The notes below the pieces were generated by a model. The model ran no database searches. It worked only from the letters and a program-made list of their open reading frames with translations, and was not told the DNA's origin. Position numbers and translations under genes: made by a program. Positions 707 through 30,235 of a stretch of 41,409 nt of DNA are shown one piece after another; position 1 is the first letter of the stretch, and every line of letters begins with the position of its first letter. The DNA comes from a virus. The stretch lies in UHGV virus genome UHGV-0177896, one strand, 5' to 3'.

Positions 707-1170
707 CAATATTTTCCTCCCGCGCTAAAGATCACATAATCTTAACAAGAATGTTAAAAAACGCTGGACTCAAACAGTAGAGTGTGTGTTATGGTTGACT
801 ATAAAGTCAGCGAAGGGAATGCTTCTGGCTTTTAACAGATAAAAAGAGACCGAACACGATTCCTGTTTTCGTCAACAAACAAGAAACCCTTTTTAAATTA
901 ATTTGTTAAGCAAAATTACGCTCATCTTTTAATCCCAAACACGTACCATTGCATATTAATGCATTCAATTAGTTACCATTTTTTTCGAGTTTTTTAGAGA
1001 AAATTTCGGGACTATTTCAGACCAATCCAGGCAGAAATAAGCAATCCCTATATTGAATGATTCCGCAACAATTATGTAAAATCACCTCCGGCTGATTTTC
1101 ATTCAAACTCGCGCTATCGAACGTCCATCAGCCAGCCGTGGCACGTTCTTGCATACGACGTGCTACGGTT

Positions 1171-1725
1171 TCATTTATCTCCGACCGGAAACTTCTTATA
1201 CAAAGTCGATACGCCAACATCATAAATGATCGCCACCTTCTGGCGAGGAACTCCTGATGCAATTAGTCGCCCGGCCTGCGCCCATTGTTCTGGTGTAAGT
1301 TTGGGACGACGTCCACCAATTCGTCCCTGTGCGCGAGCAGCTTCCAGTCCAGCTTTTGTTCGTTCAACAATCAGTTCTCGTTCCATTTCAGCCAGGGCCC
1401 CCATCACATGAAAGAAAAAACGCCCCATCGGTGTGCTGGTATCAATAGCATCCGTCAGGCTGCGAAAATTAACGCCACGTTCGCGCAACTCCTCAACCAG
1501 AATGACCAGATGCCGCATACTACGCCCCAGCCGATCCAGCTTCCAGACAACCAGAGTGTCACCTGCCGATAATGTCCTGAGCAGTTTTTTCAGTCCCGGC
1601 CTTTCGGACTTTGTACCGCTTATCTTGTCTTCAAAAATCAGCTCGCATCCTGCACAGTTCAACGCATTACGTTGTAGATCGGTATTCTGGTCATTTGTTG
1701 ATACGCGTACATAGCCAATAAGCAT
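1171..1725 (-). CDS. pin: Serine-recombinase DNA invertase (Pin/Hin/Gin family, 184 aa)
   Basis: N-terminus MLIGYVRVSTNDQ is the resolvase/invertase catalytic-serine motif, with a C-terminal HTH. ATG at 1725 (internal Met of ORF 1171..1761). Sits next to an invertible tail-fibre segment. Confidence 0.9.
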   Translation of the reverse strand: MLIGYVRVSTNDQNTDLQRNALNCAGCELIFEDKISGTKSERPGLKKLLRTLSAGDTLVVWKLDRLGRSMRHLVILVEELRERGVNFRSLTDAIDTSTPMGRFFFHVMGALAEMERELIVERTKAGLEAARAQGRIGGRRPKLTPEQWAQAGRLIASGVPRQKVAIIYDVGVSTLYKKFPVGDK

Positions 1726-1751
1726 GGTAGATCTCCCTGACAAAAGCAGGA

Positions 1752-28704: not shown

Positions 28705-28732
28705 CGCAACAAAAAACCCGCCGAAGCGGGTT
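28705..28732 (-). terminator. Rho-independent terminator at the 3' end of the hok-type toxin transcript
   Basis: Stem AACCCGC/GCGGGTT followed on the minus strand by TTTTTTGTTG, about 70 nt downstream of the toxin stop. Confidence 0.6.
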
Positions 28733-28800
28733 TAGTGCGGGTGCGTTGAGGGTGCCTGACACATGAGAGGTGGCGAGGGATTTCTCCCCCGCCTGGTCTC

Positions 28801-28956
28801 TTACTCCTCAGGTTCGTAAGCTGTGAAGACAGCGACCTCCGTCTGGCCGGTTCGGATTCGTACCTCGCAGAGGTCCTTCCTCGTTACCAGTGCCGTCACT
28901 ATGACGGTTAAACAGATGACAATCAGGGCGACTAACATCGCCTTTTGCTGCTTCAT
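28801..28956 (-). CDS. hok: Hok/Gef-family type I toxin (51 aa)
   Basis: MKQQKAMLVALIVICLTVIVTALVTRKDLCEVRIRTGQTEVAVFTAYEPEE: a single TM helix plus the conserved RKDLCEV...IRTGQTEVAVF core. AAGGAGAAG SD; an in-frame upstream ATG at 29013 may correspond to mok. Confidence 0.85.
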   Translation of the reverse strand: MKQQKAMLVALIVICLTVIVTALVTRKDLCEVRIRTGQTEVAVFTAYEPEE

Positions 28957-29294
28957 AGCCTGCTTCTCCTTGCCTTTCGGCACGTAAGAGGCTAACCTAC
29001 ATTTGTGAGACATAGATTGGGCCTCAGATTAATGTTAAGCGTCTTGCAGGACGCGTAATGTTAACTGGGGCTTTTCTCTGTCTGCCTTACAGTGGCATGC
29101 CCGAGGCAGACAGCCTCAAGCACCCGCAGCAATCTTACCGACACCGATAAGAAAACGCTATTTTTTATTGCCAGCACCTTCTATCCAGGCTAATTTATCT
29201 GCGTCAGAACGGCGCAATGCGCTCGCCTGAGATACGTTTACTTGCCATGGTAACAACAGGTAACGGCAATTGTTGTTTCTGTTTTGTTTCCTTC

Positions 29295-29327
29295 AAAAAC
29301 CCCGGACCATCAATCCGGGGTTTTTGT
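29295..29327. terminator. Bidirectional rho-independent terminator
   Basis: Hairpin AACCCCGGA/TCCGGGGTT flanked by an A-tract on one side and a T-tract on the other. It separates the nin-like operon from the hok locus. Confidence 0.6.
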
Positions 29328-29330
29328 TTG

Positions 29331-29414
29331 TTAACCCCAACGGCAAATCGAATACACCACCAGCGCCACCGCCATCACCATTCCTACCGTTGCGAATGCT
29401 TCAGGCCAGGTCAT
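29331..29414 (-). CDS. 27-aa hydrophobic peptide, translationally coupled
   Basis: MTWPEAFATVGMVMAVALVVYSICRWG; ATG overlaps the stop of the upstream 274-aa gene as ATGA, with GGAGGA 9 nt upstream. Followed directly by the terminator. Below ORF-track cutoff. Confidence 0.35.
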   Translation of the reverse strand: MTWPEAFATVGMVMAVALVVYSICRWG

Positions 29415-30235
29415 CGTAAAATATCCTCCACACCTACCAACCCGTTCTGCTTCAGATATTCCATCGCCTTATCAGGCAAGCTGCTTAAACTATTGGCGTA
29501 CTTTAAGGAGTGAGCCAGACGCTTAACCCACATTGTTAATTCGCTAACCTGGTTACCTGGCACTGGCGACGCTACTGTCTGTTCCAGAACGTCATCAGGT
29601 ACTACCGGCTCTACTGCCAACTGACTGGCATATTTGTTAATGGTAACGATAAGCTCTTGCTCGGCCTCATCCAGACAATCACCAACACCTCGCCTGTCAC
29701 CGTCAAAATCATCGAAATCGGCACGAATCCTGGCAACCTCCCGGATTGCGGACAACACTTCACCAGGAATTAGCGGAGAGTTGGTTGACGTTTCCGAAAT
29801 TTCCCGAAAATTATTGGTTGACGAATCCTTGTTTTCCCGAAAGTTTCCTGACTGAAGCATGGCTTCGCGGCAATCGTTCCATCCTTCAGCATAATCACTA
29901 TACGCAAGAGGCCAACCTCTTATGTATTCACGCGGCAACTTATCAGGCACTACCAGCGCTGGCGATGATGCATAAAGTGGTGTTATTTTTGCCCGAAAAT
30001 CACCTACTTTATGCAGTCGCACCCACCGTTCGACTTCTGCTTTGTCAGAATACATAGCGGTGAACGTATTATATTCATGGTCAATTTGCGTGAAGGTTGC
30101 CTTCCACGCCACCGGCTCTGCTTCCAGCGATGCCAGCGCAATCCGTGCCAGTTCCATTTGTTCACCACGGGTAAGCCCGTTTTCAAGCGGGTTTTTAATG
30201 AACAATTCAATACGTTCTTTGGTAATAGTGGTCAT
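29411..30235 (-). CDS. Hypothetical acidic protein (274 aa), nin-like region
   Basis: ATG at 30235 with an AAGGAG SD 6 nt upstream. No recognisable domain. Confidence 0.55.
   Translation of the reverse strand: MTTITKERIELFIKNPLENGLTRGEQMELARIALASLEAEPVAWKATFTQIDHEYNTFTAMYSDKAEVERWVRLHKVGDFRAKITPLYASSPALVVPDKLPREYIRGWPLAYSDYAEGWNDCREAMLQSGNFRENKDSSTNNFREISETSTNSPLIPGEVLSAIREVARIRADFDDFDGDRRGVGDCLDEAEQELIVTINKYASQLAVEPVVPDDVLEQTVASPVPGNQVSELTMWVKRLAHSLKYANSLSSLPDKAMEYLKQNGLVGVEDILR

Follow-up and report, generated by a model that had tools for sequence, protein, structure and literature searches.

A conserved 27-codon reading frame in the early region of a Rac-like prophage and the family of predicted phage membrane peptides to which it belongs

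Can a reading frame of only 27 codons, lying between a larger phage gene and a transcription terminator, be a gene in its own right, and what might its product do? The question is raised by the minus strand of the virus genome UHGV-0177896 (41,409 nucleotides (nt), the whole stretch being called the window hereafter), in which a first-pass annotation made from the letters alone had placed a hydrophobic peptide of 27 amino acids (aa) translationally coupled to the gene before it. The comparison of homologues presented herein demonstrates that this open reading frame (ORF) is under selection at the protein level, and it very probably is a real, translated gene for a membrane peptide. The elements concerned are the following:

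29331..29414, minus strand: ORF of 27 codons plus stop, encoding MTWPEAFATVGMVMAVALVVYSICRWG, recognized by its sequence, frame conservation, ratio of nonsynonymous to synonymous polymorphism (pN/pS), synonymous codon use and family.
29424..29429, minus strand: Shine-Dalgarno (SD) sequence GGAGGA, 9 nt 5' of the ATG and within the 3' end of the upstream gene.
29411..29414, minus strand: ATGA start/stop overlap, a candidate termination-reinitiation junction formed by the peptide ATG (29414..29412) and the upstream TGA (29413..29411).

Read from 29414 to 29331, the minus strand gives ATG ACC TGG CCT GAA GCA TTC … CGT TGG GGT TAA, with the stop at 29333..29331 and MTWPEAFATVGMVMAVALVVYSICRWG as the translation. 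Sequence and translation agree with the ORF that had been described, and both the SD (29429..29424) and the ATGA overlap (29414..29411) that it had named are present. Since there is no in-frame start farther upstream, 27 aa is the maximal length of the ORF. The single hydrophobic helix that had been predicted is also recovered, residues 6-24 having a mean Kyte-Doolittle hydropathy of 2.23, which is consistent with one transmembrane (TM) helix. Taken alone, an ORF of this size is within chance, because the 4-kb stretch in which it lies is overlapped by 71 ORFs of 20 aa or more, and its significance therefore rests on conservation.

Homologous loci were gathered with degenerate DNA patterns, and protein relatives with a profile of duplicated peptides. 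In a first scan of IMG/VR, for which WPEAF, Y21 and R25-W26 were fixed while the start, the stop and the other codons were left free, 120 interior loci were obtained, with ATG or GTG as codon 1 in 118 and a stop at codon 28 in 119. The second scan fixed the N-terminal half only, so that insertions and deletions could be detected, and yielded approximately 133 true loci: in 121 the ORF has exactly 27 codons, in a few it has been shortened or lengthened in frame (23-29 codons), and about six are damaged copies (one premature stop, one stop loss, two frameshifts in the start region, and two ATG-to-ATA changes). Conservation of the frame in relatives had been suggested as a check, with frame-disrupting variation as the result that would count against a gene; because the frame is intact in about 95% of these loci, such variation is not what the relatives display.

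The pattern of substitution points in the same direction. The pooled pN/pS was 0.33 in frame, against 0.84 and 1.80 in the other two sense frames, and variation was highest at third codon positions. Invariant Gly11 and invariant Ala15 are each encoded by all four of their synonymous codons, and A13, A17 and G27 by three each, while the stop, either TAA (50) or TGA (7), stays at one fixed position. Codon 2 specifies T, N, S or I, and its first base is A in 56 of 58 unique sequences, the other two being frameshifted copies; the ATGA overlap is preserved because codon 2 begins with A in all intact copies. The equivalents of the SD in related loci are GGAGGTG or GGAGGA, at an equal position. Ungapped pairwise identity is 0.74-0.94 inside the ORF, drops to a background level of about 0.33 within 12 nt past the stop, and decays over some 30 nt upstream.

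Two kinds of variant recur among the database proteins. In-frame 6-nt expansions of the TM segment (GCGATG or GCGGTG, read as Ala-Met or Ala-Val repeats) give products of 29-35 aa (P0058, P0072, P0074, P0079, P0080, P0085 and P0091); this is a slippage-prone hexamer that lengthens the helix and leaves the frame unbroken. A recurrent frameshifted C-terminus, '…SIAAGDKNGLRGKKS', was seen in a 933W-type context, mostly in read-archive assemblies (P0093, P0094, P0098, P0099, P0104, P0112 and P0121), and represents either true alleles that have degenerated or errors of assembly close to where the ORF ends.

The relatives extend far beyond the loci retrieved at the DNA level. A profile search of 5.8 billion proteins gave 108 hits, all of them short and none with an informative name, and an exhaustive HMMER search of 1.84 billion cluster representatives found 151 clusters (50% identity) at E <= 0.001, nearly all of 24-60 aa. 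The consensus of this broad family is M-x-W-P-[ED]-A-F-A-x-V-G-x-x-[FW]-A-x-A-[FW]-x-x-W-A-x-x-[KR]-[YW]-G, and the exhaustive search also revealed WPDAF, WPQAF, WPSAF and WSDAF in place of WPEAF; since that search uses no word index, such natural variation argues for a functional motif and not an artefact of ascertainment. Both G11 and A15 persist in the deep branches. Two of the 151 clusters (P0171 and P0173) are in-frame fusions to an upstream protein in which the internal Met is kept. Six deep-branch members could be placed on contigs, all of them in early or DNA-metabolism arrays of phages, with 4-nt overlaps, and with DNA ligase, DHHA1, ThyX with an intein, VRR_NUC, helix-turn-helix (HTH) and Lar-like proteins as neighbors. 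On these comparisons, the ORF appears to be a genuine gene of a widespread, uncatalogued family of phage peptides of 24-35 residues.

Among complete genomes of E. coli, blastn located the 84 nt in 1583 of 5426 (approximately 29%), at 2714 places and with up to seven per genome, and coverage of the query was 80% or higher in 1642 of the 1643 records. By tblastn, 95 phage records were matched, 92 of them over the full length and with identity down to 59%, including 933W, VT2-Sakai, VT1-Sakai, Min27, BP-4795, ArgO145 and POCJ13; the 24-aa subfamily, used as a tblastn query, had no match in phage records. The gene is also present in about 180 plasmids, mostly non-mobilizable E. coli and Salmonella replicons of 92-105 kb, which we take, judging by their size, to be P1-like phage-plasmids. 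In 933W the blastn match is limited to the ORF, which lies between the unrelated gene L0139 and sokW/mokW/hokW, encodes MTWPEAFANVGTVMAVVLVVYSICRWR and again starts with an ATGA overlap. Vequintavirinae are a group of virulent myoviruses, and in one of them, Av-05, a packed array of genes has an 82-nt gap between two annotated genes that is otherwise empty and into which the ORF fits exactly. As had been anticipated for an ORF too short for standard gene callers, it is missing from the RefSeq annotation, made with the Prokaryotic Genome Annotation Pipeline (PGAP), of a chromosome identical around the ORF, and from all five phage records inspected (933W, Stx2 phage I, VT1-Sakai, ArgO145 and Av-05), while some GenBank submissions call the 27-aa product as a 'hypothetical protein' or 'bacteriophage protein'. 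A strict N-terminal DNA pattern run on species-representative genomes retrieved only Escherichia and Shigella, one possible member in Pseudobdellovibrionaceae, two tiny contigs, and about 15 chance hits that have no hydrophobic segment. Peptide ORFs identical to E. coli prophage alleles of the 933W type were seen on a 431-bp contig of Xanthomonas pisi (L134) and a 369-bp contig of Acinetobacter idrijaensis (L142), both of which are probably contamination.

Within this distribution, the gene changes its neighbors at both ends. It is preceded by at least five unrelated types of upstream gene, namely two DUF551 architectures (about 80% of the loci), the L0139 type of 933W, the type present in the window, whose protein ends in '…NGLVGVEDILR', and two more. 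The start overlaps the upstream stop as ATGA in 96 of 121 loci and as ATGATGA in 16 more (112/121 together), and in 9 of the 10 remote members examined, and likewise in Av-05, the start is overlapped or abutted by the stop of an ORF upstream; in the remote members the following gene often overlaps the peptide stop too. With its start inside the upstream stop and its SD inside the upstream gene, the locus has the sequence layout expected of a translationally coupled cistron. Downstream, the 132 loci that could be classified comprise 33 with a directly abutting hok/sok, 33 with hok/sok after a spacer (a terminator or a second small TM ORF), 40 with a co-directional gene within 60 nt, and 26 others, e.g., terminators or a type II toxin-antitoxin (TA) pair. 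From the variety of upstream genes and downstream contexts it follows that the peptide gene is an independent module, which recombines at its own borders.

The second small TM ORF is itself unannotated (MSDDISLAMEGALAV…; MSDDISLAMEGALAVIVVVGVYCLVVLLMDRLGN, 34 aa, with its own GGAGG) and stands between the peptide gene and hok/sok in some prophages, about 35 nt past the peptide stop at L020, L031 and L038 (proteins P0084, P0089 and P0119); it had no match in PHROGs or PADLOC. Database entries of 74 aa are read-through fusions of the peptide ORF and this second ORF. Another composite, P0127 (44 aa, five member sequences, Hok family toxin by its NCBI name), begins with residues 1-15 of the peptide and continues with the C-terminal portion of Hok (MTWPEAFTTVGIAMA|LVTRKDLCEV…) and presumably arose by a deletion between two TM-coding segments.

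In the window, the surroundings of the gene are defined by three further features:

29411..30235, minus strand: upstream ORF of 274 aa to which the peptide gene is coupled, a mosaic early-region protein with its stop TGA at 29413..29411.
29294..29326, no strand assigned: GC-rich hairpin, a bidirectional intrinsic terminator (-25.5 kcal/mol, z = -3.4) that starts 4 nt past the peptide stop.
28801..29125, minus strand: hok/sok-type type I TA locus, with the mok ORF at 28801..29013, hok at 28801..28956 and sok at 28951..29125.

The window is a Rac-like lambdoid prophage inserted between pphA and yebY, and seven complete E. coli chromosomes match the DNA around the ORF at 100% identity. On the strand of the peptide, the order of genes begins with replication genes (a cro-like HTH gene, YdaT, YdaU and an ATP-binding protein), continues with DUF1627, DUF977, several small genes, a gene of the XF1762 family, the 274-aa ORF, the peptide gene and the terminator, and after the latter proceeds to hok/sok, DUF1367, DUF1364, DUF1133, and then the lysis and structural genes. 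The first-pass annotation had called the upstream gene the last nin-like gene, which holds as to position, between replication genes of the ydaU/ydaV type and the DUF1367/DUF1364/DUF1133 block, but not as to the identity of the protein, a mosaic in which no Pfam domain, DUF551 included, was found. It is instead a patchwork of PHROG families of unknown function (phrog_5117, 14306, 660 and 924), and shares its N-terminus with the DUF551 genes that precede the peptide elsewhere. The 274-codon ORF is intact; where it lies, PGAP calls a pair of short pseudogene fragments and nothing else in an identical chromosome ('hypothetical, incomplete' and 'DUF551, incomplete'). It may be an under-annotated real gene. 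Likewise, the position as the last gene before a terminator is true of the window, but elsewhere the peptide gene often is not last, and in 933W and VT1-Sakai it is located in the leftward early region.

The bidirectional terminator is as had been described: the hairpin (CAAAAACCCCGGA…TCCGGGGTTTTTG) can terminate in both directions because an A-run and a T-run flank it. Such a terminator follows the ORF in a minority of related loci, about one-fifth (25/121). The hok/sok locus directly downstream of it is complete and separate from the peptide gene; its sok matches Rfam RF01794 (118 bits, E = 6e-28), and RefSeq annotates hokD there. Just downstream of hok, a sub-threshold match to the Rfam family isrK (28711..28792, minus strand; 29.8 bits against a gathering score of 50, E = 3e-4) overlaps a terminator-like hairpin at 28733..28714. 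A promoter consensus scan found no promoter close upstream of the peptide gene, the only weak promoter-like site being about 300 nt upstream and within the preceding gene. Neither an antisense promoter nor an Rfam family was found over 29331..29414, an absence of evidence given that consensus scans are weak.

How, then, might the peptide be expressed and what might it do? The gene sits in early-operon arrays, here in the rightward early operon of the prophage and elsewhere in leftward regions or in the early arrays of other phages. Ribosomes that end at the upstream TGA would reinitiate at the overlapping ATG with the aid of the GGAGG of the SD. Synthesis of the peptide would therefore follow transcription of the early operon upon induction or infection and would roughly parallel that of the upstream protein. 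A hydrophobic core of 17-19 residues (about residues 6-24) would insert in the inner membrane as a single helix, between the conserved N-terminal cap M-x-W-P-E-A-F and a basic-aromatic-Gly C-terminus (R-W-G). Under the positive-inside rule an N-out/C-in topology is likely, because the core is flanked by only one basic residue, R/K25, and the N-tail contains E5. In the E. coli branch, the invariant or nearly invariant residues P4, F7, G11, A15, S22 and R25 occupy 340-80° of the helical wheel, around G11-xxx-A15; from this small-residue face and the conserved interfacial cap we infer specific helix-helix packing, either between copies of the peptide or, with greater likelihood, against an inner-membrane protein that belongs to the host or to the phage. 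Taken as a whole, the explanation as a coupled, early-operon, single-pass inner-membrane micropeptide that acts by helix packing seems to us slightly better than an even bet, while the narrower proposition that it binds a membrane partner and thereby modulates an inner-membrane protein is more tentative and falls somewhat short of even.

Several small single-pass membrane proteins regulate larger ones, such as AcrZ, MgtS, MgrB, CydX and KdpF, and the peptide resembles that class in having fewer than 50 aa, one hydrophobic helix, a short conserved cap and a small-residue face, and in being missed by pipelines. It differs in that it has no sequence relationship to them, is borne by phages, resides in early operons and is coupled to varied upstream genes. 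Binding to a membrane protein so as to modulate it is how characterised small membrane proteins act. Small early phage proteins that act on the envelope or on division are also known (lambda Kil, Rac KilR, Qin DicB and YdfD, and T4 Imm and Sp). The peptide is like these in being small, encoded in an early operon within a non-essential accessory region, and probably active on host physiology soon after induction or infection; unlike them, it shows no homology to any of the group, is much shorter and has a wider phage range, which includes non-lambdoid phages and one of the Vequintavirinae.

Several observations weigh against the gene as we read it, or against the modulatory role. On codons 8-20, which lie in the TM segment and were unconstrained by the search pattern, pN/pS was 0.48 in frame versus 0.63 and 2.0, so that the contrast with sense frame +1 is modest (0.48 vs 0.63). 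The antisense mirror frame, whose third positions coincide with those of the sense frame, stays open in 59 of 61 sequences, with a pN/pS of 0.36; because that value is also low, substitution ratios cannot assign the strand, and the assignment rests on the conserved start, SD, overlap and stop, the edges of the module and the deep protein family. The E. coli loci are akin to one another, and their counts are not independent events. No recurrent partner gene that would name a target was seen among the deep-branch contigs examined, and a uniformly hydrophobic peptide could equally disturb the membrane directly. The K-12 prophages Rac and Qin have no copy (the scan covered these two), for which reason the best K-12 small-protein datasets are probably uninformative. 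Finally, the peptide is not listed in the supplements of the ribosome profiling (RIBOseq) of strain Sakai that were searched (Hücker 2017), in which cultures were uninduced and multi-copy reads are problematic.

The first-pass annotation had noted that small membrane peptides of prophages are often toxins or modulators of membrane proteins. The foremost rival is that the peptide is a membrane-damaging toxin like Ibs or ShoB, or a small holin-like depolariser, that upon firing of the early operon oligomerises, collapses the proton-motive force and causes host shutdown or superinfection exclusion. Known type I toxins are similar to it in size, its hydropathy is high, and the conserved G-xxx-A face could support self-association. 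TA loci adjoin it as well, hok/sok in 50% of the loci and a type II pair in ArgO145. With Hok/Gef, Ibs, ShoB, Ldr and TisB it shares small size (27 aa), hydrophobicity and residence in prophages next to a true hok/sok. The resemblance does not extend to regulation: no antisense or nearby RNA antitoxin was detected, the only true Rfam hit being the sok of the neighboring hok, and neither a close promoter of its own nor a long, repressing 5' untranslated region was found. Instead, the ORF starts inside the upstream stop with its GGAGGA exposed, and translation would be coupled and assisted by the SD, not repressed. The predicted helix is not amphipathic (hydrophobic moment of 0.53 per residue), up to seven copies are found together in one genome, and the gene is carried in the early arrays of many types of phage that need a living host for their full cycle. 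The strongly conserved N-terminal cap, too, suits specific recognition better than generic damage to the membrane. In sum the peptide does not look like a classic type I toxin; we consider direct toxicity unlikely and favor a modulator of an inner-membrane protein over it.

A second rival gives the neighboring hok/sok a direct part, either because the peptide modulates the Hok protein or because its translation, together with the terminator, insulates the hok promoter or the 5' end of its mRNA from read-through. It draws on 66 of the 132 related loci, which have hok/sok no farther than 400 nt downstream, 33 of these (the 933W type) with the peptide stop about 6 nt from the putative hok -35 box, on the same order in the window with a terminator in between, and on the existence of the natural peptide-Hok chimera P0127. 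Against this stands the half of the enterobacterial loci without hok/sok nearby, the lack of any in the deep-branch contigs or in Av-05, where the called neighbors gave no Pfam hit to Hok, and a family far broader than the hok-linked loci. The linkage is explicable if related E. coli prophages inherited one DUF551-peptide-hok module from a common ancestor, and the frequency of this neighbor may reflect just that. A functional tie to hok/sok is thus very unlikely in our view.

Still less can be said for a role of translation alone in cis, by which ribosomes on the ORF would prevent Rho-dependent polarity or tune the hairpin terminator as a leader peptide does. Coupling of the ORF to its neighbors is always tight, and since 4 nt separate the stop from the extended hairpin, a ribosome that terminates there would reach into the 5' arm. 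Such a role would not account for a constrained amino-acid sequence with several synonymous codons at invariant residues, nor for a motif kept across 151 clusters with diverged DNA, and the terminator follows the ORF in only about one-fifth of the loci; moreover, regulatory codon runs or alternative hairpins were not found. We rate it as highly improbable. A leader peptide or attenuator, as a class, was rejected on similar grounds: the terminator is found in 25 of 121 loci, a hok promoter or a gene lies directly downstream elsewhere, and no alternative structure is conserved.

The weakest alternative is that this strand holds no gene. The conserved block would then be a non-coding boundary of the mosaic, like the short conserved sequences at which modules join in lambdoid phages, or a linker for recombination, or it would form a structured RNA or belong to a gene on the other strand, as the open mirror frame and one record with a long antisense ORF over the region might suggest. 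We give this alternative a very small probability, given that start, SD, overlap and stop are all kept and stand exactly where the block has its edges, that variation peaks at third positions and stop codons interchange, that no RNA structure or covariation was found, that an antisense ORF would have no conserved ends between unrelated flanks and its product would be an implausible His/Arg-rich low-complexity string, and that deep relatives were found at the protein level in co-directional arrays. The structured RNA had been rejected on an RNAalifold consensus of -2.2 kcal/mol with compensatory change in 0 of 13 predicted pairs, and the non-coding lambdoid mosaic boundary on codon-position bias, synonymous codon use at invariant residues, the fixed start and stop, and the in-frame pN/pS of 0.33. 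The record in question is AP004402.1 (L003, Stx2 converting phage I), in which the peptide gene, the hok leader and the end of ORF-34c are overlapped in antisense by an annotated 249-aa 'ORF-38' (1001..1750, minus strand), which is almost certainly a false call.

The peptide was also set against the catalogues of known families. Pfam, PHROGs v4 and NCBIfam r20 gave no significant match for the peptide of the window or for up to three variants of the E. coli branch, nor did Pfam and PHROGs for 40 diverse members of the family, and PADLOC, run with the window peptide only, gave none. No chain of the PDB, KdpF included, matches the family profile at E <= 10. The sequence of the peptide was not found in any paper of the literature searched, the supplement of Pro-SMP finder had no hit to it, and a paper that models the exo-xis proteins does not mention a TM segment or short ORF. 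Among named families, KdpF (NCBIfam TIGR02115) was rejected because the match reached 14.4 bits against a cut-off of 26.85 and covered 12 residues only, in an early-operon prophage context and with no support from the PDB. Membership in Hok/Gef was rejected since PF01848 was not hit even at E <= 10, the only Hok-named match being the chimera P0127.

The peptide was also considered as a tail of DUF551 (Pfam PF04448), an idea that came from a cluster at 90% identity in which the peptide is mixed with DUF551 proteins of 121 aa. The fusion was rejected because those proteins do not contain the peptide, which moreover lies in another frame than the upstream gene, and the upstream gene of the window and at least three other upstream types have no DUF551. 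Calls of 40-47 aa are alternative-frame read-ins from the 3' end of DUF551.

Small membrane proteins are systematically missed by annotation and several are potent regulators; the present peptide is unusually well supported by comparative evidence. Large-scale small-ORF catalogues list bulk-predicted families of small genes from phage genomes and microbiomes, and the peptide is like those in being a conserved short ORF with a predicted TM segment in phage genomes, although it has no model in the four profile libraries searched (Pfam, PHROGs, NCBIfam and PADLOC). A small phage membrane protein overlooked by annotation is a known concept, and the WPEAF family, of at least 151 sequence clusters, has no entry in Pfam, PHROGs or NCBIfam. 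The gene, frequently multicopy, is carried by 29% of the complete genomes of E. coli, and reference Shiga toxin (Stx) phages (933W, VT2-Sakai and VT1-Sakai) have it as well. One gene of 84 nt with a handful of invariant residues is a concrete and cheap target for experiments, and these could address how temperate phages affect the envelope of the host through their early accessory regions and why hok/sok is so often directly behind. A bolder idea, which we regard as quite unlikely, is that the WPEAF peptides are a universal early phage effector that docks through the cap and the G-xxx-A face onto one conserved inner-membrane machine of the host, which may be a component of DNA entry or transport, an insertase, or a divisome or protease component, and so blocks superinfection or reprograms the envelope; in enterobacterial prophages it might also tune Hok. 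If true, it would be a new class of phage-host interface, present in about a third of E. coli genomes and in the major Shiga-toxin phages.

For annotation the consequences are more immediate. The peptide gene merits addition to the annotations of phages and of E. coli, where it explains apparent 'intergenic gaps' and some spurious 'DUF551, partial' calls. Six database entries are of the latter kind (P0013, P0019, P0034, P0045, P0048 and P0050): they are fragments of the peptide at contig edges, of 30-39 aa and without DUF551 sequence, and the name they bear, 'DUF551 domain-containing protein, partial', is an annotation carry-over from the neighboring gene.

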